Under the pieces are notes generated by a model, which worked only from the letters and a program-made list of their open reading frames with translations, was not told the origin of the DNA and did not search any database. A program made the translations under genes and the position numbers. Of a DNA stretch of 34,373 nucleotides, positions 332-27,840 are shown one piece after another. Position 1 is the stretch's first letter; every line of letters begins with the position of its first letter. The stretch comes from a virus (lineage: Duplodnaviria > Heunggongvirae > Uroviricota > Caudoviricetes), in IMG/VR virus record IMGVR_UViG_2713896907_000006, positions 1-34,373 of that record. One strand, written 5' to 3'.

Positions 332-592
332 TTAATTCTGAGGTAAAGGCAAACTCATCTGATTGTTTCCCCTGTGTGAAGCTGGCAGCTCATGCCACGG
401 GATACCTTCTGAAGAGTGAACGCCGGAGGCGTGTTTCGATGTGAATTTATGGAAAGCTTCCAGTGTTGAGAAGCATACGCCGCATTCCAGATTGTTACAC
501 TGGTAATACTTTTGCCGCACGGTGTTTGAATCATTTTCCGGACGACTGGTGCGGATACGGGCAGATGCGCCACAAAGCGGACAACGGAACAT
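332..592 (-). CDS. ogr: Ogr/Delta-family zinc-finger late transcription activator
   Basis: Translation starts MFRCPLCGASARIRTSR and continues to YYQCNNLECGVCFSTLE: the CxxC...CxxC zinc-finger arrangement and N-terminal sequence match P2 Ogr. The ORF is somewhat longer than the roughly 72-aa P2 protein. Confidence 0.85.
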   Translation of the reverse strand: MFRCPLCGASARIRTSRPENDSNTVRQKYYQCNNLECGVCFSTLEAFHKFTSKHASGVHSSEGIPWHELPASHRGNNQMSLPLPQN

Positions 593-883: not shown

Positions 884-3055
884 CTATTTTAAGCTAATTG
901 TTGCATCTCTTAAATAATATTTTTTCCCATCTGCAATGCTCTTAAGTACAGCTTGAATGCGAGTCGGATGCTTTGAAATATCTATGTTTTTAGCTTTATT
1001 TCTAACCTCATCTACATCAAGTATTTCCCCGAAATAATGTTCGTCAAAAATAACATAAGGGCCATTCGTTGAATCTCTACCAGTTTCACCAATAATTTCA
1101 CACAATCTAATTATGCCATCTTCTGATAAGATGGAAGCAAGAAATTCTGATGTGAATTCAACAGAGATTCTCTTTAATTCGAAAAATATATTTGATTCTA
1201 GATGATAGTCAAAAAATATTTTTTTATTTAAAGCAATAGTAGCTGTTTCTTTGAAGGTATTCTCAAGTTCAACAATCTGATCTTTATTAATCTGTATATT
1301 ACTTGAGTTTCGTACGTTGTATAGTACTTCTGCTCCAAGTGGCGCATTCTCATATCGACCAATAATTTTTTTTATTAGCTCATATTGCTCACTACTTTTA
1401 GATATAATTTTATCAGTGAGCCAATACATCCTTCTATAAGGATCTTCTCTAATGAGACCATAGTTTTTTTCTAATGAAGATTTTAACTCTTGAGAGAAAA
1501 GAAATCTATCATAAATGCACGTTAATATATTAAAACTATCAACTTTACAACAAGCGTCTGTATAAATATTCATCATTTCGAAAAATCTTTCCTCGGCATT
1601 TTGAGATAACACATCCTCAAGGAATTTTTCTCTATTAATTTTCCCTTCGATGAAAAGAAGAATGTCATGATCGGAAATATATCCTACTGGAGTTTTAAAA
1701 TGAAGGGCAATATGAAGTCTTTGGGGGGCAGAAATTCTTCCTGCTGCATCTGAGTCAGATACATCATAAGGATAAGATTGATTGGGGCGTAGAAGAGGGA
1801 AAATATACTCTAATAGCCCCTGCATCAATGTACGTTCTCGTTGAGAAAAAATATTTAGTTTATTGCATCGTTCATGGCTATAATGCTCTATAATATCTTG
1901 ATGTTTATTCATTAACAAATTATTGATGGTTAATCTATTCCCAATGTACGCTTCAGGAGTATTCTTTATATGCTCATAAATTAAATTTGATTTGGTTGCG
2001 ATTAGAGATAAAGAAAAAAGATCTGAAGAACACACCTGACCTTTAATTTGCTCTAAAGTAAATCTCAAGTGGTTGAAAAACCTTTTCAACTCTCTTGGAT
2101 TATTAATTAATTGCTTGAAATAATTATGGTAAATCCAATCTAATCTTTCTTGATCTTTTTCAAATTTATCAGTTAAAAAACTATCACCTAGTTTTTCAAA
2201 CTCTGAATTTGCGATTTCATTCAGTCCTCTTTCTGAAATTACGGGAAGTGAAACTCGAAGTTGAACAATCTTATTAATATATTCTGACGGATTTATAATG
2301 TTATTTTTATCAAGCACAGAAATTAGGTAATTAGGATCAAATGCAAGTAAAAAAGAAGTGCCTGAGAAATTCGCAACAGCTTTGACTAACCGTAAAACTT
2401 GAAAAGCCTCAGAGGGTGTTAAACGATCAATATCATCAATTATTACAATTATAGGATGTTTTATTTTTTTTATCGCATTAGCCACTTGTTTTTTTCTATC
2501 TAAAAGATCAAGTTTTTTTAACTCAGCTATTTTTTTAGTAGCATGTCCAAAGCTTGAAAGAGATTTTTCTATGATAGATGCCCATGGTTCTGCTCCAGGG
2601 ATAAGTTTAGCAGCACTAAAGAGGCTAGAGTATGCAATTAGCTCTTTTGATACTTTTAATGCAACTTTTGATTTGTCTTTAATATTTAGTTGTGAAGAAA
2701 ACTGCAATAAAAAATCTTGAATCAAGGATTCAGGTTGGCCAGCCAACCATGGATTATATTCTATTATAATGGGTAAGGAGTCCTTTTCATTTAAGGCATT
2801 TTTTATAAGATTTATGACTGACGTTTTACCATATCCCCACTCAGCCTCTATAGATACAGTGAAACAATCATCGTCGTTATTTAATAGTAAAATATTTGCC
2901 AAATTATTTGCAAAAGTAAGTCTATTTAGTAAGTCTGGATCATTTTGACCGCCTAGTATAGGTTGGTCATTATGATATGCTCTCATTTTTAAACTCATCC
3001 ATTTAAATAAAGCAATCATAGAGATGTTGCTATTAATATTATAATATAGCCACAA
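884..3055 (-). CDS. KAP-family P-loop NTPase (about 700 aa), accessory cargo gene
   Basis: Walker A-like AEWGYGKTS, Walker B-like IIVIIDDIDRL, and the KAP-typical NPRELKRFFNHL motif, followed by roughly 370 aa of unassigned C-terminal sequence. The gene and both flanks are strongly AT-rich compared with neighbouring phage genes. True start is probably an internal ATG near 2986. Confidence 0.8.
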   Translation of the reverse strand: MWLYYNINSNISMIALFKWMSLKMRAYHNDQPILGGQNDPDLLNRLTFANNLANILLLNNDDDCFTVSIEAEWGYGKTSVINLIKNALNEKDSLPIIIEYNPWLAGQPESLIQDFLLQFSSQLNIKDKSKVALKVSKELIAYSSLFSAAKLIPGAEPWASIIEKSLSSFGHATKKIAELKKLDLLDRKKQVANAIKKIKHPIIVIIDDIDRLTPSEAFQVLRLVKAVANFSGTSFLLAFDPNYLISVLDKNNIINPSEYINKIVQLRVSLPVISERGLNEIANSEFEKLGDSFLTDKFEKDQERLDWIYHNYFKQLINNPRELKRFFNHLRFTLEQIKGQVCSSDLFSLSLIATKSNLIYEHIKNTPEAYIGNRLTINNLLMNKHQDIIEHYSHERCNKLNIFSQRERTLMQGLLEYIFPLLRPNQSYPYDVSDSDAAGRISAPQRLHIALHFKTPVGYISDHDILLFIEGKINREKFLEDVLSQNAEERFFEMMNIYTDACCKVDSFNILTCIYDRFLFSQELKSSLEKNYGLIREDPYRRMYWLTDKIISKSSEQYELIKKIIGRYENAPLGAEVLYNVRNSSNIQINKDQIVELENTFKETATIALNKKIFFDYHLESNIFFELKRISVEFTSEFLASILSEDGIIRLCEIIGETGRDSTNGPYVIFDEHYFGEILDVDEVRNKAKNIDISKHPTRIQAVLKSIADGKKYYLRDATISLK

Positions 3056-3375
3056 AAAAACTCAAAATTTGCATATTGAGCATAAACACATAACATCTAA
3101 GCAACGCTGAAAATTTATAACGAAAATCACCTAAAAAAACAAGTCTGTTATGCAAAGCTCATCGTGGCAGGTATGGCTTTGAGCACACTCGGTCAACTAT
3201 CTCTATTGATACTGAGTGGGGATTTGACAAATCACTATTTGACTGAGCTTTTCGGGGAGATAAACACATAGCGCTGTCATAAATTTTCGCTCTTGGTGCA
3301 GAAGTGACTGGCAGATCAGGTTTACTCTGTGTCGTAAGTGTTCCGCCCATGTTTAATCTAATGTATCAAAATTGC

Positions 3376-4485
3376 TCACTCTGTTTCTGCTATCCATTCT
3401 GGGATTTTTGCTTCAAGCTCAAGCTGCGTGGTAAAGCCGCTGTTATCAATGGTGTGCTCGGTTTTCGCAATAATCCAGTCCTGATTATCAATCTCGCTTT
3501 TAAATCCTGTTACCGTGCCATGCATTTCGGGGTAGAGTTCTGCGCGTCCACGTGCCAGCATGATGGAGAATGATGCGGCTCCGCGTTGTAGCTGCTGCCA
3601 CTTTGCCGCCGCTGCGCGTCTTGCTGCCTGCTCGTTCTGATAAGTCTTGCGTAACACAAACACATTGCCTTCCGCGCCTTCCATATAATCACCTTCACGG
3701 CTGCTGCTTTTCTCCTTTTTGGGTTTTGGCGGTTTGCGGCGTTTCACGCTGACTTTTTTCTTTTTCCCGTAATTAAGATCAAGCCAGTAGGCGCGTACAC
3801 CCGTATACGCCTCGCGGTCAGCAATGCGGAACTGATGGCGATCGCCGCTGCTGCGTGTGATGGCAAACGATGGCAATGGTTTTCCCTGCGCGTTCACGCC
3901 ACCACCTGGCATAATGAATAACAGATTACCGCTTTTTACCGTGGTGATTGCGCCCAGCATTTCCGCCATGCGTGTAAGGAAGGACATGTCGCTTTCTTCG
4001 GTCTGGTCGGCGTGGTCGATTTCGATATCCATCAGCATTTCGCTGATTTGCGGTTTCAGGCCGTATCGGTGAGCAATTGCAGACACCACGCGTTCAACGG
4101 TCACATCATGCCAGGATACTTCGCGCTTGACGTTAAATTCATCCCGAAAATCTGCGCTTCTGGCTGAAATGGTCAGTCTGTCGGGCGGTCCTTCATGAGC
4201 AATTTCATCAACAATGTAAGTGCCTTTTTCTGTCAGCGGTTCGCCTTTCCAGCCAATGAGAACCGTCAGGCGAGCTCCCCGTGGCGGCAACTGCAACTGA
4301 CCATCAGCATCATCCAGCGTGATGGTGAGCTGGTCTGCTTCAAATCCCCGGTTGTCGGTCAGTGACAGGCTCATCAGGCGTTCTGCCACACCGGATAGCG
4401 TTTTCCCCTCCGCGAGAATATCAAAATCAGGCATCTTCACGGGGTCAGTACTCTGGTTGAACAGTTGCATGGTGGTGTCAATCAT
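3376..4485 (-). CDS. D: Tail protein gpD (late control gene D family)
   Basis: Translation from MIDTTMQLFNQSTDPVKMPDFDILAEGKTLSGVAERLMSL matches P2 gpD along its length, including the lysine-rich KKKKVSVKRRKPPKPKKEK segment. Start chosen at the ATG at 4485, preceded by a GGGAGGGAG ribosome-binding site; the ORF track extends further upstream to 4617. Confidence 0.85.
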   Translation of the reverse strand: MIDTTMQLFNQSTDPVKMPDFDILAEGKTLSGVAERLMSLSLTDNRGFEADQLTITLDDADGQLQLPPRGARLTVLIGWKGEPLTEKGTYIVDEIAHEGPPDRLTISARSADFRDEFNVKREVSWHDVTVERVVSAIAHRYGLKPQISEMLMDIEIDHADQTEESDMSFLTRMAEMLGAITTVKSGNLLFIMPGGGVNAQGKPLPSFAITRSSGDRHQFRIADREAYTGVRAYWLDLNYGKKKKVSVKRRKPPKPKKEKSSSREGDYMEGAEGNVFVLRKTYQNEQAARRAAAAKWQQLQRGAASFSIMLARGRAELYPEMHGTVTGFKSEIDNQDWIIAKTEHTIDNSGFTTQLELEAKIPEWIAETE

Positions 4486-4642
4486 CGGCTCCCTCCCTGT
4501 GCAGCATGGTCGCATGTGTGTGCGGGCGGGGTTACTGCTTTTTGTTGTCGCCGGGCGGCAAGAACGGCGCAGGGATGAGATTGCGCGCGTGGTGGGTGAT
4601 GATTGTTGCCGAATCATTTAACGGATACAAGGGGCTGGAACT
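4486..4642. promoter_or_regulatory. Divergent intergenic region between D and FI, presumed to carry promoters for both
   Basis: 157 bp between the divergent start codons of D (minus) and FI (plus). No exact TGT-N12-ACA Ogr-type site was found by eye. Confidence 0.35.
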
Positions 4643-5827
4643 ATGAGTGAAACTCGCTTTCATGGCGCCCGCGTTACGGAAAGTACCGACCTGGTAACAG
4701 CAATTAACGACGTTGATTCCAGCGTTATCGGTATCGTGGCAACGGCGGACGATGCGGACGCGAAGCTGTTCCCGCTGAACAAGCCTGCATTAGTGATCCG
4801 CGTCAATGACGTGCTGGGAAAATGCGGGACAACGGGGACGCTGTACCGTGCGCTGAAACCCATTGCAGACCAGGTGAGCACAAAGGTGATCGTCGTTCGC
4901 GTGGCTGAACACAAAGAAGAAGACGGAAAAACACAGGATCAACTGGTTATCGGTGGTTCTGAATCCGACGGCAGCTATACGGGGATGTATGCGCTGCTTG
5001 TTGCAGAGCAGGATGAAAGCATCGGATACCGTCCGCGTATTCTGGCCGCGCCGGGGCTGGACACGGAGGCGGTGACAAAATCCCTGTGCGTGATTGCAGG
5101 TAAACTGCGCGCGTTTGTGTATGCCTCCTGTCATGGCTGTAACACGATGGCTGAAGCCATTGCATACCGTGAAAAATTCAACGAACGCGAGCTGATGCTC
5201 CTGTGGCCGGACTTCATCGCTTACAACCCGAAAAGTGGCGAGAATGAGGTTTTCCCCGCGCCAGCCTATGCGTGCGGCCTTCGTGCGTACATTGACCATG
5301 AGCAGGGCTGGCACAAATCGCTGTCCAACGTTCCGGTCAAAAATGTGCTGGGGATGTCCAGGCATGTGTTCTGGTCGTTGCAGGCTGATGACAGCGATGC
5401 CAACAGCCTCAACAACAAAGAAATCACAACCATCATTCGCCGCAACGGGTTCCGCTTCTGGGGCAACCGCACACCGGAAACGAACGCCTACATCTTTGAG
5501 GTGTATACCCGAACCGCACAGGTGCTGGCTGATTCAATTGCGGAAGCGCAGTTTGAAACCATCGACAGTCCACTGACGCCCGCGAACGTGAAGGACGTCA
5601 TCAGTGCCATCAGGGCAAAACTGGATTCGCTGGTTACTGCCGGGAAACTGATTGGCGCATCGTGCTGGTATGACATCGTGGATAACAGCACCACAGAATT
5701 ACGACAGGGGCGCGTGCGTATTCGCTATAAATATACGCCCGTTCCTCCGCTGGAAGATATGGAGCTTTACCAGGCGTTCACTGATGAGTTCTTTGGTCCT
5801 GCATTTGCAGTGCTTGGAGGTGCTTAA
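4643..5827 (+). CDS. FI: Tail sheath protein FI
   Basis: 394-aa product with the FPLNKP, IIRRNGFRFWGNRT and YTPVPPLE motifs shared with P2 FI. Confidence 0.9.
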   Translation: MSETRFHGARVTESTDLVTAINDVDSSVIGIVATADDADAKLFPLNKPALVIRVNDVLGKCGTTGTLYRALKPIADQVSTKVIVVRVAEHKEEDGKTQDQLVIGGSESDGSYTGMYALLVAEQDESIGYRPRILAAPGLDTEAVTKSLCVIAGKLRAFVYASCHGCNTMAEAIAYREKFNERELMLLWPDFIAYNPKSGENEVFPAPAYACGLRAYIDHEQGWHKSLSNVPVKNVLGMSRHVFWSLQADDSDANSLNNKEITTIIRRNGFRFWGNRTPETNAYIFEVYTRTAQVLADSIAEAQFETIDSPLTPANVKDVISAIRAKLDSLVTAGKLIGASCWYDIVDNSTTELRQGRVRIRYKYTPVPPLEDMELYQAFTDEFFGPAFAVLGGA

Positions 5828-6339
5828 TGGCCGTACCAAAACATCTTCGTTTTTTTACGCTGTTTGTGGATGGTGAAAATGAAGTGGGTAAGGTGACGTC
5901 TGTCACCCCGCCTAAACTGACGCGTAAAACCGACAGCTATCGTGGTGGTGGCATGATGGGGGCGGTGAGTATCGACCTCGGCCTGGACGATTCCGCGCTT
6001 GATGCGAGTTTTGTCATGGGGGGCGCCGTTCGTGCGCTGTTCCTTAAATATGGCGGAACAATGGACGGCACGCTGCTGCGTTTTGCGGGTGAATACTACA
6101 CCGATGCAGAAAGCGACCTGTATGAAATCGAGATGCGCGGGCGTGTGACGGAAATTGATATGGGGGAGGCCAAACAGGGCGAAGCCACGTCACACACTTA
6201 CGCTGTCAAAAACACCTACTACAAGCTGAGTATTAACGATCGTCCGGTGTGGGAAATTGACCTGGTGAACCACATCTACCGGAAGGATGGCAAGGACATT
6301 GTACCCGACCGCATCCGCTCCGCGCTTGGGCTCGGCTGA
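5827..6339 (+). CDS. FII: Tail tube protein FII
   Basis: 170 aa, start overlapping the FI stop; position and length match P2 FII. Confidence 0.85.
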   Translation: MAVPKHLRFFTLFVDGENEVGKVTSVTPPKLTRKTDSYRGGGMMGAVSIDLGLDDSALDASFVMGGAVRALFLKYGGTMDGTLLRFAGEYYTDAESDLYEIEMRGRVTEIDMGEAKQGEATSHTYAVKNTYYKLSINDRPVWEIDLVNHIYRKDGKDIVPDRIRSALGLG

Positions 6340-6393
6340 TAAGTAATATGCAGGCGGCGCAGTGCGTCGCCTCTGACTGAAAGGAGTTTTCTG

Positions 6394-6762
6394 ATGAAAG
6401 AGACGAAAAATACCAATACTGAAAACGCTGTGGTGGTTGCTGATACTGCGAAAGAAACCAGCGAGCGCGGCGTAAAACTTACCCAGCCAATTGAGCGAGG
6501 CGACGAAAAAATCACTTATGTGGAGATTACCGGGGCTATTGAGCAGGCTGGATCCCTGCGTGGTCTGTCGCTGTCTGATGTGCTGAATCTGAAAGCGGAA
6601 TCCATGTTTACGCTGTTGTCACGCGTGACATCACCGCGACTGGATGAAGTGACGATCAAAAAAATGGCATCCCGTGACTTTATTCAGTTATGTGTGGTTG
6701 CCGTAAATTTTTTGAGCGGTGCGGACTCTGGCGGGAAGAACGAACAGGCGACGGAAGCCTGA
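6394..6762 (+). CDS. E: Tail assembly chaperone gpE
   Basis: 122-aa ORF immediately upstream of the tape measure gene, containing a TTTTTTG slippery heptamer near its 3' end. Confidence 0.8.
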   Translation: MKETKNTNTENAVVVADTAKETSERGVKLTQPIERGDEKITYVEITGAIEQAGSLRGLSLSDVLNLKAESMFTLLSRVTSPRLDEVTIKKMASRDFIQLCVVAVNFLSGADSGGKNEQATEA

Positions 6763-6926
6763 TCACGGTTGTGTGCTTTGAGCACATAGAAGACTTTGTG
6801 GCGGATATTGCCGCCATTTTTAACTGGTCGCCCGCCGAAATCTTCATGATGACGCCCGGCGAAGTGGTTAGCTGGCGTGAGCGGGCGGCACTTCGCAGCG
6901 GGAATGCAGACAATGAAGACTCTTGA
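6394..6926 (+). CDS. E+E': gpE+E' frameshift fusion product (predicted)
   Basis: Joining the gpE frame to the -1 frame at the slippery site gives an extended product ending at 6926, as in P2 E/E'. Confidence 0.65.
6708..6714 (+). promoter_or_regulatory. TTTTTTG slippery heptamer for the -1 programmed frameshift producing gpE+E'
   Basis: TTTTTTG lies in the gpE frame as AAT TTT TTG; the -1 frame is open from here to 6926. Confidence 0.75.
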
Positions 6927-9720
6927 TATCCGGGTCGCTTTCAGCGCCGTTGACAGGCTGACCCGGCCTGCCGAAAACGCCCGCCGCCTGATGGGGCAGT
7001 TTGGTGACTCCATCCAGCGAACGCAGGGGGCGATCAAAAATCTCGAGCGTCAGGCGCGTTCATTTGAGCGCGCCCGCGACGCTGTCAGTAAAGCGGATGC
7101 GGGTATCGTGAAAGCACGACGCCAGCTTAACGCCCTTAATCAGTTACAACGCACGGGTACAGTGCTCAGCGAAAAACAACAAAAGCTGATGCAGCAGTTA
7201 AGCACCCGGCTTGAACGCTTGAATGAATCGCGCACACGGGAAATTCAGAAAATGCGGGAACTTGGCGGAGAGTTGAAACGCCACGGCATTTCCCTGACAG
7301 GCAGCGATAACACCATCCAGCAGGCCATCAGACGCACCGAACAGTACAACAACCAGCTTGAACGCGAACGGCAGGCGCTTGCGCGTGTAACGCGGGCGCG
7401 TGAGCGGTATTCGCGCGCGCAGGAAACCGCGGGAAAACTGAAAACAGGTGGTGCGCTGGCAATTGGTGCGGCAGCGGCGGGCGGCTATGCTGCCGGGCGT
7501 TTTTTGCAGCCTGCGATCGGGTTCGGCAAAGAGATGTCCCGCGTTCAGGCACTGACGCGAATCGACAAAAACAGCCCGCAGTTTAAGGCGCTGCGTGAGC
7601 AGGCGTTAAAACTTGGCTCTGAAACACAGTTTACTGCGAGTGATGCCGCCAGTGGGCAGAGCTTTCTGGCAATGGCTGGTTTTACTCCGCAGGCCATTCA
7701 GGCCGCATTGCCCGGTGTTCTTAATATGGCGCTGGCAGGTGGCGTCGAACTCGGCGAGACGGCTGATATAGGCTCCAATATCCTCACACAGTTCAACCTG
7801 ACAGCCGATCAAATGGACCGGGTGGGCGATACGCTGACAGCAGCATTTACCCGGACCAATACTGATTTACGCGCGCTGGGCGAAACCATGAAGTATACCG
7901 GTCCGGTTGCCGCAAAACTTGGTATCAGTCTTGAAGAAGCGGCGGCCATGGCCGGGATGCTTGCCAATAATGGTCTTCGCGGAAGCGATGCTGGCACGGC
8001 CATGCGCGCAAGTCTGTCCCGCCTTGCATCACCGCCAAAAGCTGCGGCTGATGCACTGAAAGAGCTGGGGGTGTCAGTTGCTGACGCCAGAGGCAAAATG
8101 CGCCCGATGGAGGATGTGCTGCTTGATCTCTATAAGGCGACACAAAAATACGGACAGGTGGACCAGGTCTCCTTCTTCAAGGACATCGCCGGAGAAGAGG
8201 CGTTCGTTGGTTTGCAGACGCTTGTTGCGGCGGCTGGTTCAGGAGAGCTGCAAAAACTGACCAGAGAATTGCAGGAGGCAAGGGGAGAGGCCGATCGCGT
8301 TGCAAAAGTAATGGCCGATAATCTTGATGGGGACCTGAAAAATCTCGACAGCGCATGGGAAGGTCTTCGTATTCGCATCAGTGATCTGGTTGACGGTCCG
8401 CTGCGTTCTGTCACGCAGTGGCTCACGCGGGTGCTTGAAAAAATCACCTCGCTGGCGCAGGCCCATCCGGTCCTGACGCGCCAGCTACTGATAGCAGGCG
8501 GTGCGTTGCTGGCAATGACTGCAACGATTGGCTCGTTGTCGCTGGTTATTGGGGTGCTTTACGGGAAGCTGGCCACCTTGCGTCTTGGTTTTGACATTCT
8601 TACCCGGTCAATGAATGTCGTCAGGGTGTTGCCTGCGCTATGGGGAATGGTGACGGGTTCCGTTTCTTTACTGGGAGGCGCGATCGGGGCGTTGTTCAGT
8701 CCGGTTGGTCTTATCGTGGCTGCGCTTGCCGGAGCTGCCGTTCTTATCTGGAAATACTGGGATCCCATCAGGGCATTTTTTGCCGGGGTGTTCAGCGGGA
8801 TTATGGAAAGACTGACCCCGTTGCGTGAAACCTTTGAACGGTTTGGTCCTGTTTTTGACGCAATCGGAAGCGGGATCAGCCAGGTGTTTAACTGGTTTAA
8901 ATCGCTGCTGTCACCGATGGAGTCCAGCAAGGAAACGCTGGATAAATGTACCAGTGCTGGCGAGATATTCGGTAACGTTCTTGGCGGTGCGTTACAACTT
9001 GTTCTGACACCTGCAAAAATGCTACTGGATACGCTGGCGTGGATACTTGAAAAACTTGGCGTCCTTCCGGATGAAGCGGAAAGGGCGCGCAAGAAAATCG
9101 AAGACGCACAGCGTGCGGCCATTCTTCAGGACAAGGTTGCCTTGCTTCAGGGGGACCTGGCGAAAATCAATCCGCCGAAGCCTGTGGAAAATGGCAATGG
9201 CACCGGAGGTGATAAACCCAAAGACAATAAACCGCTCACAGACAGCAATACCGGTACGCTGCGTAGACTCAGCAAAATTGCTGATAACACAGGTAAGCTG
9301 GTTGATGAGACGAAAAAACGCATTGGCCCCGGCGATATTGTCTTTAAGAACCTGCCCCGCGCACTTGCTGTTCGTGGGGAGTGGCAGGAGCGGAAGATTG
9401 CGCAGGTCAGTAAGCCTGCCCCCGCAATTAATATCACACCCGTGGTTCCGGCTCCGCTGCCTCCGGCGCTGGTCCCTGTTGTTGCGGCCAGCTCCCGCCC
9501 GGTGGCGGAGGCCATACGATCGCCAGTGGCATCAGTTCCTGCAACTTCCCGTAACCGGGAACCTGTTGCCTCCGGATTTGGCGGTGAAATTCATGTTCAT
9601 CTGCATAACGTTGTTACACAAAATCCCCGTGAACTGGCGAAACTGGTCGGTGAAATGGTCAGGGCAGAAATGGAACGGCGCGCCCGTGCCGGGCGTGGCA
9701 GTTTTTGCGATAAAGATTGA
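6877..9720 (+). CDS. T: Tail tape measure protein gpT
   Basis: Largest tail ORF (about 935-947 aa), coiled-coil-rich N-terminal half and Gly/Ala-rich hydrophobic segments; sits between E/E' and U. Start may be the ATG at 6913 (MKTLDI). Confidence 0.9.
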   Translation: MSGRHFAAGMQTMKTLDIRVAFSAVDRLTRPAENARRLMGQFGDSIQRTQGAIKNLERQARSFERARDAVSKADAGIVKARRQLNALNQLQRTGTVLSEKQQKLMQQLSTRLERLNESRTREIQKMRELGGELKRHGISLTGSDNTIQQAIRRTEQYNNQLERERQALARVTRARERYSRAQETAGKLKTGGALAIGAAAAGGYAAGRFLQPAIGFGKEMSRVQALTRIDKNSPQFKALREQALKLGSETQFTASDAASGQSFLAMAGFTPQAIQAALPGVLNMALAGGVELGETADIGSNILTQFNLTADQMDRVGDTLTAAFTRTNTDLRALGETMKYTGPVAAKLGISLEEAAAMAGMLANNGLRGSDAGTAMRASLSRLASPPKAAADALKELGVSVADARGKMRPMEDVLLDLYKATQKYGQVDQVSFFKDIAGEEAFVGLQTLVAAAGSGELQKLTRELQEARGEADRVAKVMADNLDGDLKNLDSAWEGLRIRISDLVDGPLRSVTQWLTRVLEKITSLAQAHPVLTRQLLIAGGALLAMTATIGSLSLVIGVLYGKLATLRLGFDILTRSMNVVRVLPALWGMVTGSVSLLGGAIGALFSPVGLIVAALAGAAVLIWKYWDPIRAFFAGVFSGIMERLTPLRETFERFGPVFDAIGSGISQVFNWFKSLLSPMESSKETLDKCTSAGEIFGNVLGGALQLVLTPAKMLLDTLAWILEKLGVLPDEAERARKKIEDAQRAAILQDKVALLQGDLAKINPPKPVENGNGTGGDKPKDNKPLTDSNTGTLRRLSKIADNTGKLVDETKKRIGPGDIVFKNLPRALAVRGEWQERKIAQVSKPAPAINITPVVPAPLPPALVPVVAASSRPVAEAIRSPVASVPATSRNREPVASGFGGEIHVHLHNVVTQNPRELAKLVGEMVRAEMERRARAGRGSFCDKD

Positions 9721-9726
9721 GGAGTC

Positions 9727-10221
9727 ATGGCCATGATGATGATCTACGGCATGTTTGTTTTTGAGCTGCGCACATTGCCGCATCAGCAGTTACAGCAAAA
9801 CAAAAGCTGGCGGCATGTGAAAAATGAACGCGTTAACCGTTCAGCAAGCTGGCAGTATATCGGTGCAGGTGATGATCGCATCGTTCTTTCTGGTGTGCTT
9901 TATCCTGAAATTACAGGTGGCGAAGTGTCGCTGTCGCTGCTGACCACGCAGGCGTATACAGGACGCCCCTGGCCTCTTATTGATGGCGTCGGGCAGATTT
10001 ACGGCATGTATGTCCTGACCGAAGCGAATACGACCCGTTCCGAGTTTGATCGCTACGGTAAAGCGAAAAAGATAGAATTTTCACTGACCCTTGAACGCTG
10101 TGATGAGGATTTGCGGGAGCGCCTGCAATCCTCATCGTTCAGCGATATGCTGTCCGGCTTCAAAGATAAGGTGACATCATCTCTTAACAGCGCGGGCAGT
10201 TCAGTTAAAGGGTTGTTCTGA
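9727..10221 (+). CDS. U: Tail protein gpU
   Basis: 164-aa product (MAMMMIYGMFVFELRTLPHQQ...) directly after the tape measure gene; matches P2 gpU in size and position. Confidence 0.85.
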   Translation: MAMMMIYGMFVFELRTLPHQQLQQNKSWRHVKNERVNRSASWQYIGAGDDRIVLSGVLYPEITGGEVSLSLLTTQAYTGRPWPLIDGVGQIYGMYVLTEANTTRSEFDRYGKAKKIEFSLTLERCDEDLRERLQSSSFSDMLSGFKDKVTSSLNSAGSSVKGLF

Positions 10222-10230
10222 TTTAACACA

Positions 10231-10265
10231 AAAACCGCTAATGGTCAGATTAGCGGTTTTTTCTT
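10231..10265 (+). terminator. Rho-independent terminator after gpU
   Basis: 9-bp stem ACCGCTAAT / ATTAGCGGT with a 6-nt loop, followed by TTTTTTCTTTTG, about 10 nt after the U stop codon. Confidence 0.75.
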
Positions 10266-10515
10266 TTGTTGAATCTTCTCGCTTGTCTGAAGTGGCTCGT
10301 ATTGTGTCCTGACGAGAAAGAGCCGATAAACTAACATCATAACAATCGCGATCTGCTTTCGCATTCTGTCGTCAGGAACCCAAAATTTGTTTTCGTAAAT
10401 CTGCATTATCTATTCTGGTTGTTTCACATAATAACTTGTATACTCCAATATTATCCATAACCACTAAGACTATTTTAAGTAAATTCAGGTTGAAGGATTC
10501 TAAGGAATAATTTCT

Positions 10516-11235
10516 ATGTTAATAGTTTCTGTACTACGTTGCGGTAAGGATTTTACGCCAAAGCATGCACAATGGCTTCATAAACAATTTGGCTCAATGC
10601 CATCAGTCTGCTTAACGGATGCTGGATATATTGATGGAGTGGACACTGCGCCATTGTTATTTGATTGGCCTGGTTGGTGGTCAAAAATGGAATTGTTCAA
10701 CCCCAATCATCCAGTAATTGGAAATCATGATATTTTATATTTTGATATTGATGTTGTTATTACAGGAAAATTAGATGCTTTTGCAAAGGCTAAAAACTTC
10801 ACCATGCTTAGGGAGTTTAATCATCATGGGCGAGTTAATTCATCAATTATGATGATCCCAGTATCTGCAAAGCAAAAAATATGGGATGCCTTTACTGCCA
10901 ATCCTGAGGAGATAATGCAAGAGTGTCGAACTGAAGATAAATGGGGAGATCAAGGGTTTATTGGTAGCATAACAAAACCTGATTTGTGGCAGGATATTAT
11001 TCCTGGTGCAATTAAAAGTTATAAGTGCGATATAGCAACAAAATCAATGATTGGATATAACCCAGATCTCGCATCAAAATCAGCAACAGGAAAAATACCT
11101 AATGGTGTTTCGGTTGTATGCTTTCATGGTAGTCCGCGCCCTTGGCGTACTGGTTTTAAATGGGTTCCATCTTTATCGTTAAAAGACTCTCTCTATGGCA
11201 AAGTAAAAAATCTAAAATTAAAGATTAAGCGTTAA
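10516..11235 (+). CDS. Hypothetical protein, AT-rich moron at the P2 Z/fun-equivalent locus
   Basis: 239-aa ORF in a markedly AT-rich segment between the tail operon terminator and gene G. No family recognised with confidence; contains a hydrophobic strand followed by FDIDVV, a DxD-like arrangement that could indicate a GT-A-type nucleotide-sugar transferase. Confidence 0.7.
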   Translation: MLIVSVLRCGKDFTPKHAQWLHKQFGSMPSVCLTDAGYIDGVDTAPLLFDWPGWWSKMELFNPNHPVIGNHDILYFDIDVVITGKLDAFAKAKNFTMLREFNHHGRVNSSIMMIPVSAKQKIWDAFTANPEEIMQECRTEDKWGDQGFIGSITKPDLWQDIIPGAIKSYKCDIATKSMIGYNPDLASKSATGKIPNGVSVVCFHGSPRPWRTGFKWVPSLSLKDSLYGKVKNLKLKIKR

Positions 11236-11261
11236 TATAAGGGAGGACATCCTCCCTTATA
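11236..11261. terminator. Perfect 11-bp stem hairpin filling the gap between the convergent moron and gene G
   Basis: TATAAGGGAGG-ACAT-CCTCCCTTATA spans exactly the 26 bp between the two stop codons; probable bidirectional terminator. Confidence 0.65.
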
Positions 11262-11828
11262 TCATGGTTGAATAGGCCAAACAGGATCAAAAATATCAAC
11301 ACGATTTAACTGTATTCGATAATTCTTCCAGGCGTTCAGTAACAATGCTTCTTCTTTCGTTGCAATCTCCAGATCTACAGCATCCAGAAGTGGCGCAATA
11401 TGTTCATTAGCCAATTGCATCAGTCTGTTTTTTGTTTCTGCCGCTTCCCGTATCCGAAACAGTTTTTCTGCTTCTGCATCTTTCACCCAGGCTGTGCCGT
11501 TCCACTTCTGAAACTCCCCTTCCGGGGATAACCAGGTGACATGTTCCGGTAGCGGTCCGAGTTCAGAAATAAATAACGCATCCCCTGATGCCACGTCATA
11601 AACCGTTTTACCCCGATGGTCTTCAACGAGATGCCACGATACATCCTCACTGTTGAAAACAGCCACAAAGCCAGCCGGAATATCTGGCGGTGCAATATCG
11701 GTACTGTTTGCAGGCAGACCTGTATGAGGTGGGATGTATGCATCACCTTCACCAATAAATTCATTAGTTCCGGCCAGCAGATTATAAATTTTTATGGTCC
11801 GTGCTTGTTCACTCATTCTGAATGCCAT
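11262..11828 (-). CDS. G: Tail fibre assembly chaperone gpG
   Basis: 188 aa; C-terminal segment [26 protein letters not shown] resembles the P2 gpG C-terminus; located directly downstream of H. Confidence 0.8.
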
Positions 11829-13660
11829 TATGCAAGCCTCACAATATAATTAAATGCGATATTTTTGACGGTGTTTTCCGCGTTACCAGCGGCGTTAACG
11901 GTGATGGTGTGTCCATGCGCACCTAATGCCACAGTGTGCGCATGGGCACCAATACCAACTGTGTGGTTATGTTGACCAATATCGACGGTATGAGAATGCG
12001 CACCAGCACTGTCCGTTTGTGCCAGCGTCTGATAGTTCACTTTTGAACTATAGGTCCCCCCTAAATTCTGAAGATTAGTGCGAGCTAAAACTCCGCCATG
12101 AGTGTGTGCTCCTGTATTGTTTGTCGTTTTTGTGCCGTGATTAAACGTGCTGACCGTTTTTGTCCCGTAATCAAATGAGCTGGTCGTTTTAGTACCGAGG
12201 TCGGTATTTGACGCACTGGCACTGTGGGTGTGAGATTTGATGCCGTCCTGCTCCTGTGACAATACGGCGCGACCACTGGCGGGCTTGCCCTTAATCGTCC
12301 AGCCACGCATATCAGGGATCACGCCTGACGGATAAGCGGCTGCAAGCAGGGGATAGGCTGCTTTATCAAAAGATTGCCCCTGCATAATGGCATAGCCTGT
12401 AGGTACTGAATCAGAAGGCCACGGAATCGCCGCACCTACCGGGAATGAATCCTGCGGTGTCCAAGGTGTCCAGCCACCCGTTGAGTACTGGCTGCGGGTA
12501 TAGCTTCTGGATGTGTTATACACATAGTAAATTTGTGTTATCCCGGCATTTTTAAGCACAACCAGTGTGCCTGCAAGGTTCTCCGGGTATTTCAACACTG
12601 CGCTTGTATTGGCATTCGCTGGCTGATGGTACAGCCCCGGCGTTTTGTAATTATCCAGATTCTGGTTTGCACCAATCTCAATACTCTGACCGTTAAAAAT
12701 ATCCTGCGATGTAACATTGACATCATTGTTCAGTGGCTTGCCATTAACCTTACGTTCTGAGGGCACACGCCCGTTTGCATTGTCATTAGCAGCTTTCACT
12801 GCTTTCGGCGTCGCGGCAAGCGTTTCAGAGTCACTGTTAGTGGCGCTGCTTAACTGGACAAGACCTTTTCGCGCTGTGGTGGCGTCCTGTGCGGTGTATT
12901 TGCCATTAGCAAGGTCATAGGCGGCCTTTACCGCCTTTGGCGTTGCCGCAAGCGTTTCAGAATCGCTGTTGGTGGCGCTACTGAGCTGGATAAGGCCTTT
13001 TCGCGCGGTGGTGGCATCCTGTGCAGTATATTTCCCGTTAGCAAGGTCATAGGCGGCCTTTACCGCCTTTGGCGTTGCTGCAAGCATTTCAGAATCGCTG
13101 TTGGTGGCGCTACTGAGTTGAACAAAGCCTTTTGCGGTCAGCGAGGCATCCGGGTGACGTCGTGACTGTTCATGCTCTTTTAGTTTGTCATCCACGTAAT
13201 CCGCTGTGGCCATCACCATGGTGTTATCCACGGTAAGCGCCACGGTGGCCGTGCTGGATACAGTCAGGATGGTGCGAAATGTTTGCGCTCGCCCGGACCC
13301 TTCGGCAACGGTTGGCTTGTAACTTTCGGCAGTATTGCCCACCGCGATTAAATCGCCGTGCTCATCAAACACACCAATTTCCCGGATCCAGAATCCGCCC
13401 GTTTCAGGAGGAATAACCAGCTCTGCAATAATGCGGTTCTGATGTGTTGCGTCCAGGAAGACGCGATTAACAGTATGTCGCCACACCTCATGCACCAGAC
13501 TGGTCTGCTTACTGTCTGGTGTGGGCAATGTACCGCCACCGTCGCCCACGGCCATATGAGTCAGGCGGACAGGCTTACCATCTGGCGCGGCTGCCTGAGC
13601 TAATTTTTTGGCACCAGTATCAGTGATAATGGTTTTAAATTTTCGTGTTGTGGTACTCAT
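11828..13660 (-). CDS. H: Tail fibre protein gpH
   Basis: N-terminus [26 protein letters not shown]... closely parallels P2 gpH. Contains three tandem copies of an approximately 41-aa unit and a His-rich C-terminal region. Confidence 0.9.
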
Positions 13661-15436: not shown

Positions 15437-16014
15437 TGCGGGCCTCCTGTCGAATCGCTGCCACCTTTAACGCCACCGTGTTTATGCGTATGCACTGTGA
15501 TGCCGTTTGAGGTGAAATCGCCGCCGCTGTGCGTGATATTGCCGCTCATCTTTCCCCCTTTTGTGACGTCAATCTCGGCTGTTTTCAGAAGGTTTGTGCA
15601 CTCCACAACAGGCGTGTCCAGTGTCACGCTGACGGATGCCTGCAGACTGGCCGTTTTCATGCCGCCGGCGCTCAGTGCGCTTTTGTCAGCGTCATAACGA
15701 ATCACTGCACCGTCCGGGGCTGTGATGACGATTTCTTTCAGGCTTTTGCCGGGGGCCGGACTGGCATCACTCCACAGGCTGCCGATTATCATGGCGGTTT
15801 CCGGATTGCCGCCGATGCAGGCAATTGCCACCTGTTCGCCGGGTGATGGCGGCAACCACACATTGAAGGCACCCGCGCGCGTGGTGTTCCAGCGCAGCCA
15901 GCCTGTTTCCAGTTCGCCGCTGCGAACGCGCACGCACCAGGATTCCTCATCAACTTCAGAGATGATCCCGGTGCGGATGATATTGCTCAGCAGTCGCATG
16001 AGTTCTGCGCTCAC
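15433..16014 (-). CDS. V: Baseplate spike protein gpV
   Basis: 193 aa with a Gly-rich C-terminus and an HTHKH histidine cluster as in P2-type spike tips. Confidence 0.85.
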   Translation of the reverse strand: MSAELMRLLSNIIRTGIISEVDEESWCVRVRSGELETGWLRWNTTRAGAFNVWLPPSPGEQVAIACIGGNPETAMIIGSLWSDASPAPGKSLKEIVITAPDGAVIRYDADKSALSAGGMKTASLQASVSVTLDTPVVECTNLLKTAEIDVTKGGKMSGNITHSGGDFTSNGITVHTHKHGGVKGGSDSTGGPQ

Positions 16015-17106: not shown

Positions 17107-17383
17107 GGCTGTTGTCCTCGTTGTTCAGTCGTTGCAGTCTGCGCTGCTCCAGTAATTCAATGGCCCGTTTATCCGCGTTACAGGTTTCCAGTGCATCCAG
17201 AAGGCGGTCGCCCCATATACCGAGGTTTCCCCAGGTGGGAGTATCAGGGAAGGGGGGAGGCGTTACCGGTATGGTCAGCGTCTGCGGTATAAGCCGGGCC
17301 GACGGCGCTGGCAGTGGCGCGTTCTGCGTGCCTGCGCAACCTGTCAGTAAAACGAGCGTCAGGCAAAGCGTGGGCGCATTCAT
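17093..17383 (-). CDS. lysC: Outer-membrane spanin (LysC/Rz1-like lipoprotein)
   Basis: Starts inside the i-spanin gene in another frame; MNAPTLCLTLVLLTGCAG has a lipobox (LTGC); Pro-rich mature region. Confidence 0.7.
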   Translation of the reverse strand: MNAPTLCLTLVLLTGCAGTQNAPLPAPSARLIPQTLTIPVTPPPFPDTPTWGNLGIWGDRLLDALETCNADKRAIELLEQRRLQRLNNEDNSHAEN

Positions 17384-20170: not shown

Positions 20171-20196
20171 GGCGGGCANNNNNNNTGATGCCCGCC
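20171..20196. other. Intercistronic hairpin between N and M whose loop contains a run of 7 N (20179-20185)
   Basis: GGCGGGCA - NNNNNNNTGA - TGCCCGCC: the flanks are perfect inverted repeats, so the ambiguous bases fall in a hairpin loop. Followed on the coding strand by GGAGAG and the M start codon. Confidence 0.8.
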
Positions 20197-21281: not shown

Positions 21282-22118
21282 TCAGAAGTCAGCCAGCTGA
21301 TCGGAGGCTGCGCCTGTTGCGGTGAACCGGTTCTGCGGATCGCCGTCCTGCGTGCGCAGTTTTTCCTTCAGTGCTGCCAGCTCTGTGGTCAGTAAAGTGA
21401 TTTTCTGGCTGTCCTGCTGATGGCGGGTTTCCAGCACATTAAAACGGTCGATAATGTCGGCCTGTGACGTTGCGACACCTTCCACCGCTTCCTGAATACG
21501 GGAGAAACTGACGTCATCCGCTTTGTGGCCACGGCCAATAATCCCCATAACGCGGTTAAACCACTGGGTGCCTTCTTCCTGACGTTGTTCGGTGAGTTCG
21601 ATAAGTTCTGACTCCATAGCGGCGGTAAACATCGCCACGTCTCCCTGCTGACAGTTGAATGTCATCAGTTGCATACGTTGTTGTGCCGCAAAGGCCAGAC
21701 GTTCCGTGCCCAGGCTGGCGGGGGTGTCGGTCATTGCCAGCCCGCGCAGGTAAGGGCCTCCCGTGATGGTTGACTGTGGTTCCAGCTCAATACTGGAGTA
21801 AATTTTTTTACCATCGTTAAGCAGGGACATCATGCGAGCGGTCGGCTCAATTTCGGCATACAGTGCCGTGCGACCTGCCAGCGGGCCATCGGTTATGTCT
21901 TCGGTGCTCAACCCCACAACATCGCCCATAGCGGAAAACTCGCTACCGGGGAGTGGTGACAGGATGTGCTCAATATTCACACGTGCACCATAAACGGACG
22001 GGTTATAACTGGTGGCGGCAGCTTTCAGCATGTCGCCGTTGATTTCGCGCCCGTCTGCCGTTACACCGGAGACAGCCACGCGAAACTTTTTGCGGGTTGT
22101 TGATTTTTCATTAGCCAT
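21282..22118 (-). CDS. O: Capsid scaffolding protein gpO
   Basis: Position and length match P2 gpO. Start chosen at the internal ATG at 22118 (MANEKSTTRKKFRV); the ORF track extends to 22151. Confidence 0.85.
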   Translation of the reverse strand: MANEKSTTRKKFRVAVSGVTADGREINGDMLKAAATSYNPSVYGARVNIEHILSPLPGSEFSAMGDVVGLSTEDITDGPLAGRTALYAEIEPTARMMSLLNDGKKIYSSIELEPQSTITGGPYLRGLAMTDTPASLGTERLAFAAQQRMQLMTFNCQQGDVAMFTAAMESELIELTEQRQEEGTQWFNRVMGIIGRGHKADDVSFSRIQEAVEGVATSQADIIDRFNVLETRHQQDSQKITLLTTELAALKEKLRTQDGDPQNRFTATGAASDQLADF

Positions 22119-22272
22119 AGTTTTTGCCCCTCTGACTGGTCCTTCAGTCATGATGGCAAAGCGTAACAGGCTGATACAAAGGGCTTTTGTTGTAAGAAAA
22201 CGGCCAGAACAGGGGGTTAAGGAGAACGGTTTCGCGCGCGGGTAATCTTCCTGTAATTACTCAGGGGGAGCA
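22119..22272. promoter_or_regulatory. Divergent O/P intergenic region, presumed late promoter pair
   Basis: 154-bp gap between divergent capsid (O) and terminase (P) genes, as in P2. Assigned by position; no exact Ogr-site match found. Confidence 0.45.
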
Positions 22273-25070: not shown

Positions 25071-25546
25071 CGCGCTTCGCTTGTCTGCTGCTTCGCCTGG
25101 GCATAAAAAATTTATGCCCCGACTCTCCAGCTCCTGTATCAATCAGATAATTTCACGACGCCTTCCAGCTTATTGCCATCATCGACGGTCAGGCTCTTAC
25201 GCAATCCCACCGCGTTGACTGCATGTTCCTGCCGCCTCAGTGCGATTTTGGCGGCCTTATCTGTTCAAAAGCCCTTACGTCTTTTTCACACTCAGCGTGA
25301 GAAATACAGCCATTCTGTTGTGTCGCTGCGACATCGTTCAGGGAATGCTATTTACCCCCTGAAACGCGGGCTGTTCCCCCGTCACCTGCGCGCAGAAAAA
25401 ACGCGTTTTTTTGTGCATGCACGGATCCTTGACGGATCCAGCCGCCATGCGGGCCGGAAGGGCAAAAAGTCATTCAAAAAAATTGTGCAAATTTGTGCAC
25501 TATTGTGCATTGAAATAAACGCCCTGGGGGAGGGCGTTTTGCTCAT
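25071..25546. other. Non-coding region expected to contain cos (not pinpointed)
   Basis: In P2 cos lies between Q and the accessory tin/old region. This gap contains a 9-bp hairpin (25099-25119), AAAAAACGCGTTTTTT and GGATCC-TTGAC-GGATCC palindromes, three phased TTGTGCA repeats and a GC hairpin. No exact P2/186 cohesive-end sequence was recognised. Confidence 0.4.
25483..25509. repeat. Three direct TTGTGCA repeats spaced exactly 10 bp apart
   Basis: TTGTGCA begins at 25483, 25493 and 25503. Confidence 0.8.
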
Positions 25547-25810
25547 CTATTTATAGCCCTGCCCCTTACTGGCCAGCGCCCTGATGGCAGGGCGTGCCAA
25601 CACCATATTTTGGCAATGATGAATTGCCCGGCAAAATTCATCTCTACCCATTGGATGCTCAACTGGCAATGTTAAATACAGGTTCCATGCATCGCCTAAA
25701 AGTTGGGCTATCTTTTGTTCTTCAGATGTCAGCAAGCAAGCGGTATCCGTAAAATAATCATACTTTTCATGTATGTTATTTAACGGCTTTTTCTTAGTGG
25801 TATCGGTCAT
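25547..25810 (-). CDS. Hypothetical small protein (87 aa)
   Basis: ORF translationally coupled to the upstream gene; contains an HP...EF...IH..Q pattern. No confident family assignment. Confidence 0.55.
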   Translation of the reverse strand: MTDTTKKKPLNNIHEKYDYFTDTACLLTSEEQKIAQLLGDAWNLYLTLPVEHPMGRDEFCRAIHHCQNMVLARPAIRALASKGQGYK

Positions 25811-27730: not shown

Positions 27731-27840
27731 GTTTACGGGATTCTGAAATCCCGCTTTTGCCTGTTTTGTGCGCGCTTCATATTTCGCGGCGCGTTTTTTG
27801 CTCATTTACGGGATTTGTGAATCCCGTTTCTGTCTGTTTT
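27731..27840. repeat. Two copies of an approximately 40-bp element, each containing a CGGGATT-N4-AATCCCG hairpin followed by a T-rich tract
   Basis: Copy 1 hairpin 27736-27753, copy 2 hairpin 27809-27826; both are preceded by TTTACGGGA and followed by CTGTTTT. They straddle the gene A stop codon, just upstream of parM. Confidence 0.75.

Follow-up and report, generated by a model that had tools for sequence, protein, structure and literature searches.

The window analysed here, a stretch of viral DNA of 34,373 nucleotides taken at its full length, carries the tail module of a P2-like (Peduoviridae) phage. Pfam and PHROG profiles identify homologues of D, FI, FII, E/E' with its -1 frameshift, T, U, G and ogr (Table 1). 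Their order is not that of P2, as a preliminary description of this DNA had noted: the canonical arrangement FI-FII-E-T-U-D-ogr lies on one strand, whereas here FI to U are read from the plus strand and D and ogr from the minus strand. D and the FI-to-U operon diverge from a spacer of 157 bp, with the gene identities and strands that were first assigned to them. Co-transcription of D with FI-U is impossible in such a divergent layout, so that D needs a promoter of its own, as that description had argued.

Table 1. Genes, predicted signals and secondary structures discussed in the text (positions in the window; no strand is entered for features not assigned to one)
Feature	Position	Strand	Evidence or remark
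ogr/Delta-type zinc-finger late activator gene, 86 aa	332-592	-	phrog_603 transcriptional regulator, E = 4e-15
D, baseplate hub, 369 aa	3376-4485	-	Pfam PF05954 (Phage_GPD)
D/FI divergent spacer, 157 bp	4486-4642		proposed bidirectional Ogr-dependent late promoter region
-10-like hexamer GACCAT, predicted D promoter	4506-4511	-	predicted transcription start ~4499
Activator-type dyad TGT-N12-AGA	4546-4563		within 24-nt element TTGTTGT-N8-GGCAAGAAC at 4542-4565
-10-like hexamer GATGAT, predicted FI promoter	4598-4603	+	predicted transcription start ~4610
FI, tail sheath	4643-5827	+	Pfam Phage_sheath_1, Phage_sheath_1C, Gp18_domIII_N
FII, tail tube	5827-6339	+	Pfam Phage_tube, E = 1.8e-45
E	6394-6762	+	phrog_103 tail protein
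E+E' -1 frameshift product	6394-6926	+	E' frame end 6926; sequence and frames checked
T, tape measure	6877-9720	+	Pfam PhageMin_Tail, E = 1.6e-56
U, tail protein	9727-10221	+	Pfam Phage_P2_GpU, E = 4.9e-39
Bidirectional intrinsic terminator, end of FI-U operon	10230-10261		13-bp stem and T-run
Cargo ORF, 239 aa, glycosyltransferase-like, low-GC	10516-11235	+	phrog_1962, E = 2.6e-77
Perfect hairpin between cargo ORF and convergent G	11237-11262		folding energies -19.4 and -20.7 kcal/mol
G, tail fibre assembly protein, last gene of minus-strand tail operon	11262-11828	-	Pfam Caudo_TAP, E = 8.8e-33
Second copy of 24-nt activator element, divergent O/P spacer	22187-22210		exact pattern match

The ogr-type product shares 42% identity with P2 Ogr over 53 aa and has cysteines in the pattern CPLC...CNNLEC, and its counterparts in related phages are annotated as ogr/Delta-like zinc fingers. 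The D protein is 52% identical to that of P2. When it is aligned with the D proteins of P2 and P88, its start falls at ATG 4485, which is served by the ribosome-binding site GGAGGGAG, while the open reading frame reaches an upstream ATG at 4617. The tape measure gene is listed as the longest reading frame, from GTG 6877; the annotation of P88 matches ATG 6913. The E/E' slippery heptamer, T TTT TTG at 6708-6714, is the one annotated at the frameshift site of P2. Genes S and V overlap at 16011-16014, and no V-type spacer separates them. Two slots carry other genes: a PifA-like KAP NTPase lies between D and ogr, and the cargo ORF (GC ~0.38-0.40) occupies the variable interval between U and G, which in relatives is taken up either by an invertase with an invertible fibre segment or by a serine O-acetyltransferase.

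The structure that follows U is, as first proposed, a bona fide terminator. Its stem folds at -19.1 kcal/mol on the plus strand (z = -6.0) and at -15.6 kcal/mol on the minus strand (z = -4.6), with a U-run on both, and it is kept in P88, 500465-2 and AH19B041. The preliminary description also spoke of a hairpin shared with convergent G. That hairpin is real, but the gene it shares with G is the cargo ORF and not U, and the folding check gave it no clear U-tract. Together, the hairpin, the bidirectional terminator and the 5.6 kb of antisense that would have to be crossed disfavour transcription of D by read-through from the H-G operon.

The novelty implied for this rearrangement does not hold. 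The window has the features of the P88-type arrangement, with a short spacer from which D and FI diverge, FI to U convergent with the H-G operon, and ogr downstream of D. By megablast, positions 3351-10286 match eight distinct phages collinearly, P88, 500465-2 and Citrobacter phiSM among them, at a nucleotide identity of 91-95%, in a comparison that covered window positions 3000-11400. These eight are represented by 11 records, several standing under both GenBank and RefSeq accessions, and each match is a single alignment piece except that to 520873, which is interrupted by IS100. The strands annotated in P88, 500465-2 and others are those of the window. Both P88, which can be induced and is lytic, and phiSM, which is active spontaneously, are functional phages (PMC5285337, PMC6456863). 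Of 5426 complete E. coli genomes, 1358, about a quarter, also have the D/FI junction in collinear form. When one genome was scanned per bacterial species, with layouts mapped by tblastn, the divergent order was found at 48 of 80 loci, and it extends over more than 20 genera of Enterobacterales. The order is thus widespread among related phages and prophages and hence unremarkable, an outcome that the preliminary description had itself named as one that would overturn its reading. A divergent D and FI-to-U block is the normal, long-fixed architecture of a common lineage. In the literature on P88, Xuanwuvirus and P2-like phages no paper was found that comments on the inversion, and the P88 paper is silent on gene order.

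The orientation of the block follows the D protein clade without exception. At all 53 divergent loci (the 48 from the scan, four related phage or E. coli loci, and the window) D is closer to that of the window than to that of P2, and at none of the 32 collinear loci (31 from the scan, and P2), all of which have a D closer to P2's. This agreement, and the collinear order retained in P2, Fels-2 and phiCTX, point to a single, old and fixed inversion, with the collinear order probably ancestral on parsimony among few outgroups. The ancestral order would have been ...H-G-(cargo)-FI..U-D-ogr. A 5.6-kb block made up of the F promoter and FI-FII-E/E'-T-U would have been inverted once, long ago, and then fixed; FI..U now runs towards G and stops at its own bidirectional terminator, and D, with ogr downstream, stands apart as a unit on the minus strand. 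The inversion would also have set the 5' end of D beside the Ogr-type activator site of the F promoter, which is dyad-symmetric. Most probably this one central site would drive transcription in both directions, as the single pP/pO site does in P2, from predicted starts near 4610 for FI and 4499 for D, and D would thereby stay under late, Ogr-dependent control. An origin of the inversion through the invertase of the relatives was considered and rejected: its sites flank the fibre segment, and their use would also flip the invertase gene, contrary to the layouts seen.

Several features of the spacer bear on how D is expressed. The activator-type dyad lies within a 24-nt element whose exact pattern occurs in the window only in the D/FI and O/P spacers, and the O/P copy has a position analogous to that of the single annotated pO/pP activator site of P2. 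P2-type late promoters dependent on Ogr/Delta have a TGT-N12-ACA dyad whose centre lies ~55 nt before the transcription start, together with a -10-like element and no -35, and they require the zinc-finger activator of the phage. A strict TGT-N12-ACA search across the window returned only three sites, below chance, none of them in late-operon spacers. Comparison of the O/P and D/FI spacers makes evident that AGA is the right half-site of the window's sub-clade, and TGT-N12-AGA aligns with the canonical TGT-N12-ACA of more distant clade members. A single central TGT-N12-A[C/G]A is present in 49 of 53 related spacers. On each arm, hexamers of the form xAxxAT are near-invariant at a distance of 44-49 nt from the dyad centre. 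Dyad-centre offsets were used for this comparison in place of the automatic start-codon calls for FI and D, which in distant loci are heuristic and noisy (dFI values of 37.5 or 133.5). The FI-side hexamer, at +44 to +49, has the offset of P2 pO and pF and keeps A45, A48 and T49 in 37-38 of 38-39 distinct relatives; the D-side hexamer, at the mirror +44 to +49, has the geometry of P2 pP and keeps A45 in 44 of 46, A48 in 33 of 43 and T49 in 39 of 43. All of these conservation counts overstate the support, as the related loci are phylogenetically non-independent. A consensus scan found no sigma-70 consensus promoter on either strand of the 157-bp spacer.

The single central dyad, the 24-nt element common to this spacer and O/P, the mirror-image hexamers, the Ogr homologue encoded at 332-592 and the mapped geometry of P2 pP/pO suggest that the D/FI spacer is most likely a second bidirectional late promoter. 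Some points speak against a bidirectional promoter, namely a right half-site that reads AGA and not ACA, a D-side -10 hexamer that is weak and in which A48 is less well kept, and a predicted D leader of only ~14 nt. A real and fixed inversion might leave D with an independent promoter, constitutive or served by a separate activator site, and the weak hexamer and short leader would suit such an arrangement, as would a conserved GC-rich block, CGCGCGCG, which lies by the D-side -10 in many relatives and could be the site of another factor. Nearly every spacer, however, has only one dyad, and the minus strand of the spacer offers no sigma-70 consensus promoter. It is difficult to account in any other way for the mirror-symmetric spacing of -10-like hexamers about a single dyad in divergent genera, and P2 provides a precedent for one site serving two promoters; an independent D promoter is accordingly judged unlikely. 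For the P88-type clade as a whole, there is a reasonable case that the shared, bidirectional late promoter arose by "promoter capture", the inverted pF-FI..U block coming to lie beside D with a dyad-symmetric Ogr-type site able to activate both directions. If so, promoter capture could account for the survival, and the fixation across Enterobacterales, of an inversion that cut an essential gene off from its operon, and the four late transcription units of the window phage would run from only two activator sites.

A reversible switch, in which a site-specific recombinase flips FI-U in the manner of the tail-fibre segments of Mu, P1 and P88, has in its favour that a Hin/Gin-type invertase adjoins the U end of the block in relatives. 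The sites of that invertase bracket the fibre segment and not FI-U, and the U-G slot of the window has no invertase. An inverted-repeat search at the ends of the FI-U block found neither inverted repeats nor recombination scars. The two hallmarks of Hin/Gin/Cin-type segments, an adjacent serine invertase and flanking inverted crossover sites, are thus both lacking, and for this reason the block is not regarded as a switch. In addition, of 1379 E. coli genomes with a match, 1358 have the junction in a single collinear place, the other orientation is never seen in this D clade, and a flipped-back FI would lose its promoter context; programmed inversion is therefore very improbable. Misorientation of the FI-U block during assembly or scaffolding has a negligible chance of being correct: the assembly does contain an N-gap, as reported, but this sole run (7 N at 20179-20185) is ~10 kb from either junction, the D/FI junction is 99.5% identical to the complete genome RM9088, and closed genomes and cultured phage genomes carry both junctions, which in the complete genome of E. 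coli AH19B041 fall within one continuous, collinear 8.6-kb match of 92% identity to window positions 3392-11998. The earlier view that the arrangement is real is borne out.

The window is thus very probably a complete P2-like prophage of the P88 type, with one old and fixed inversion of FI..U, a D gene likely driven from the shared Ogr-type site, and a stable architecture. Since the phage lineage in question is very common, has already been sequenced and is classified by ICTV, its standard layout has little significance of its own. For annotators and for synteny-based prophage tools it is a reminder that the P2 order is not universal and that a divergent layout is not to be flagged as a misassembly. 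The conserved, mirror-symmetric D/FI spacer may also offer a small, naturally occurring illustration of how an inversion of gene order can become tolerable through a dyad-symmetric activator site.

Among the named systems, P88 (Xuanwuvirus), 500465-2 (Gemsvirus), P884B11, PhiR44_2, Chuche, 520873, 503458 and Citrobacter phiSM have the order and strands of the window. P88 and its relatives share with it ogr and D on one strand, a divergent FI-FII-E-E'-T-U, the 157-bp spacer and the terminator after U. They differ at the D-ogr slot, where the window has the KAP NTPase, and after U, where they carry the DNA invertase and invertible tail-fibre segment in place of the glycosyltransferase-like ORF. 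P2 (Peduovirus) has the same tail genes, the E/E' slippery heptamer and an Ogr homologue. Its FI..U-D-ogr genes form one operon from pF in which U and D overlap, whereas the window has FI..U reversed and D standing alone as a unit; the half-site is ACA in P2 and AGA in the window. At pP/pO of P2, transcription starts lie ~56 nt to each side of one annotated activator site, which is the geometry predicted for the D/FI spacer of the window. Fels-2 (Felsduovirus) has the same modules as the P88 type, down to an invertase cassette placed after the tail-fibre genes, but carries invertase-FI..U-D-ogr on one strand, and the P88 type corresponds to the Fels-2 layout with FI..U inverted.

The window (34.4 kb) is a complete P2-like prophage in reversed orientation relative to the P2 map. 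It has the genes of a P2-like phage; their order is not that of canonical P2 and corresponds in full to the P88 type, the Peduoviridae lineage in which D and FI are divergent. As the preliminary description had it, D lies on the minus strand and FI to U on the plus strand, and all of the elements it named are found. Alignment (52% identity to P2 D, 98% to P88 D) sets the D start at ATG 4485 rather than at ATG 4617 farther upstream, and the spacer between D and FI is therefore the 157 bp originally proposed (4486-4642). The slippery heptamer T TTT TTG of E/E' (6708-6714) leads into frame 6690-6926.

Coordinates and strands of features in the window and at two related loci
Feature	Position	Strand	Remarks
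ogr/Delta homologue	332-592	-	left end of window
KAP NTPase, low GC	884-3055	-	then 63-aa ORF, then D
D	3376-4485	-	start set by alignment with P2 D and P88 D
-10-like GACCAT	4511-4506	-	D side; predicted start near 4499
24-nt element TTGTTGT-N8-GGCNAGAAC	4542-4565		D|FI spacer; zero mismatches
-10-like GATGAT	4598-4603	+	FI side; predicted start near 4610
FI	4643-5827	+	first gene of tail block
FII	5827-6339	+	tail block
E/E'	6394-6926	+	tail block, -1 frameshift
T	to 9720	+	tail block
U	9727-10221	+	last gene of tail block
239-aa ORF, low GC	10516-11235	+	between U and G
G, H, I, J, W, V, S, R, lysis genes, X, L, M, N, O	right of 239-aa ORF	-
24-nt element TTGTTGT-N8-GGCNAGAAC	22187-22210		O|P spacer; zero mismatches
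P, Q	right of O	+
Replication gene A	27777-30599	-
Repressor and integrase	towards right end of window
Misannotated D, RM9088 locus (L003)	8186-9030
Misannotated D, AH19B041 locus (L004)	1483-2333

An assembly artefact is ruled out by the same collinear block in independent phages and complete genomes, and the preference first expressed for a real rearrangement over a scaffold error is upheld. Window 3351-10286 (D, spacer, FI to U, terminator) matches 8 distinct phages collinearly at 91-95% identity (11 records, several under both GenBank and RefSeq accessions), including P88 (Xuanwuvirus), 500465-2 (Gemsvirus), P884B11, PhiR44_2, Chuche, 520873 and Citrobacter phage phiSM. The match is one alignment piece except in 520873, where IS100 interrupts, and the annotated strands are identical to those of the window. 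The D|FI junction (751-bp probe, counted when collinear at ≥80% coverage) occurs in 1358 of 5426 complete E. coli genomes, O157:H7 and O104:H4 among them, and is 99.5% identical in strain RM9088; in the complete AH19B041 genome, window 3392-11998 is matched in one piece (92%) from D to the start of H, cargo ORF included. The N-gap mentioned earlier is present, but it is 7 N (20179-20185), the sole ambiguous stretch, ~9 kb from the nearer junction and flanked by the terminase small-subunit gene M (ending at 20153) and capsid gene N (starting at 21258, minus strand). P88 can be induced and is lytic, phiSM shows spontaneous activity (PMC5285337; PMC6456863), and thus the divergent layout is fully functional.

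The preliminary description had allowed that the order would be unremarkable if widespread in the lineage, and so it is. One genome per GTDB species was scanned with a D-protein alignment as query, and D, FI, FII, E, T, U, G, I, J and ogr were placed on each locus by tblastn. Of the 80 loci obtained, FI to U is divergent from D in 48, collinear as in P2 in 31, and one is unclassifiable. Hosts of the divergent type are Salmonella, Citrobacter, Klebsiella, Enterobacter, Kosakonia, Trabulsiella, Pantoea, Erwinia, Izhakiella, Brenneria, Pectobacterium, Symbiopectobacterium, Serratia, Edwardsiella, Hafnia, Rouxiella, Dryocola, Yersinia aleksiciae, Xenorhabdus, Photorhabdus, Providencia and Morganella. 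Orientation follows the D clade without exception: the D protein is nearer to the window's D than to that of P2 in 53/53 divergent loci (48 from the scan, four further related loci, and the window) and in 0/32 collinear ones (31 plus P2). P2 and Fels-2 are collinear, as is phiCTX, a distant Pseudomonas phage; un-flipping FI..U in the P88 layout gives exactly the Fels-2 order, H-G-G'-H'-invertase-FI..U-D-ogr on one strand. A search for inverted repeats at the ends of the FI..U block found none and the window has no invertase gene, so that a present-day switch is rejected; the simplest reading is a single old inversion of the pF-FI..U block, fixed in a large enterobacterial clade. We found no paper on P88-type phages or P2-like gene order that comments on the inversion, a layout already plain in many deposited, classified genomes and ordinary architecture. 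One P88-type prophage, its D 96% identical to the window's, lies on a 226-kb contig of Vagococcus sp. WN89Y; this Firmicute-labelled assembly is most likely mislabelled or contaminated by an enterobacterial contig.

In RM9088 and AH19B041, RefSeq (PGAP) shortens D to a 262-aa "VgrG/Pvc8 family" protein and adds an opposite-strand pseudo-fragment; tblastn recovers an intact D of ~366 aa at both loci. The truncation is an annotation artefact, and is likely widespread in the P88-type lineage.

Homology to P88-type phages stops just past the U terminator (~10286). The slot beyond it, which in P2 (downstream of G) holds Z/fun, carries an invertase plus invertible fibre segment in P88, 500465-2 and RM9088, a serine O-acetyltransferase in DEC9B and many STEC strains, and a glycosyltransferase-like ORF in AH19B041 and the window. 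The latter (slot 10262-11235, plus strand; 239 aa; GC ~0.38) matches phrog_1962 (E = 2.6e-77) and no Pfam family, has a sigma-70-like promoter match in its slot (10423-10452), and may serve lysogenic conversion through O-antigen modification. Because ~30 bp past the terminator (10258-10286) still align with the 3' ends of the invertase genes in P88 and 500465-2, replacement of an invertase cassette by the present cargo is suggested. The D-ogr slot (884-3350, minus strand, GC ~0.31) holds two ORFs. One encodes a 723-aa P-loop NTPase of the KAP family that matches the PADLOC PifA model over its N-terminal half (E = 1.4e-64); the other, of 63 aa, is without matches. This cargo is probably an anti-phage moron of the abortive-infection type. 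In relatives this slot has other genes or none (DUF2971 in RM9088, nothing in P88).

The terminator claimed after U is there (10230-10261; 13-bp stem and T-run; -19.1 kcal/mol, z = -6.0), and it is bidirectional, since the minus strand also yields a stem plus U-run (-15.6 kcal/mol). The hairpin thought to be shared by U and convergent G exists as a perfect 12-14 bp stem (11237-11262), but it separates G from the 239-aa cargo ORF and has no real U-tract. Read-through from H-G would have to cross this hairpin, the bidirectional terminator and 5.6 kb of antisense; D therefore needs a promoter in the spacer, in line with the initial proposal that it has a promoter of its own.

The only modestly new result is an argument, made in silico, that D and FI share a bidirectional late promoter. 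Late promoters of P2 are Ogr-dependent and contain the dyad TGT-N12-ACA (PMC3931495); a scan of the D|FI spacer found no sigma-70 consensus promoter, as expected by analogy with such activator-dependent promoters. The 24-nt element has zero-mismatch copies at exactly two places in the window, the D|FI spacer and the divergent gap between O and P. One central TGT-N12-A[C/G]A is present in 49 of 53 spacers of divergent-type loci, where it is the best-conserved block of an otherwise diverged alignment; the half-site is AGA in the window (dyad at 4546-4563) and canonical ACA in more distant genera. An xAxxAT hexamer lies on both arms, +44 to +49 from the dyad centre, and is conserved over related sequences on the FI side (A45 38/39, A48 37/38, T49 37/38) and the D side (A45 44/46, A48 33/43, T49 39/43). 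The window's D-side hexamer is weak, and the predicted D leader just includes the ribosome-binding site GGAGGGAG. In the P2 record the divergent promoters pP and pO have one annotated activator site in common (3057-3087), their mapped starts lying 56 nt to either side. The window's Ogr homologue has the CX2C...CX4C cysteines. Because of the dyad, the mirror-symmetric hexamers, the pP/pO precedent and the Ogr homologue, the spacer probably acts as a second bidirectional late promoter, one dyad serving both D and FI; the captured pF site has dyad symmetry, and this may account for the viability of the inversion.

Elsewhere, a 2-mismatch copy of the element lies inside O (21678-21701). A perfect TGT-N12-ACA (TGTTGTGTCGCTGCGACA; 25316-25333) downstream of Q resembles the pO/pP site of P2 and falls inside a 127-aa ORF (25173-25556) without a PHROG match; it may serve cos-proximal cargo as an additional late promoter or have arisen by chance. 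S and V overlap (16011-16014; region 17107-17243 is listed alongside), leaving no P2-type pV spacer; in P2 this position is taken up by orf30, a terminator and pV. With just two exact copies of the 24-nt element in the phage, late genes of this lineage may be driven from a pair of bidirectional sites, as against three sites in P2. In P2, -10-like hexamers of pP, pO and pF stand at the same dyad offset as those of the D|FI spacer.
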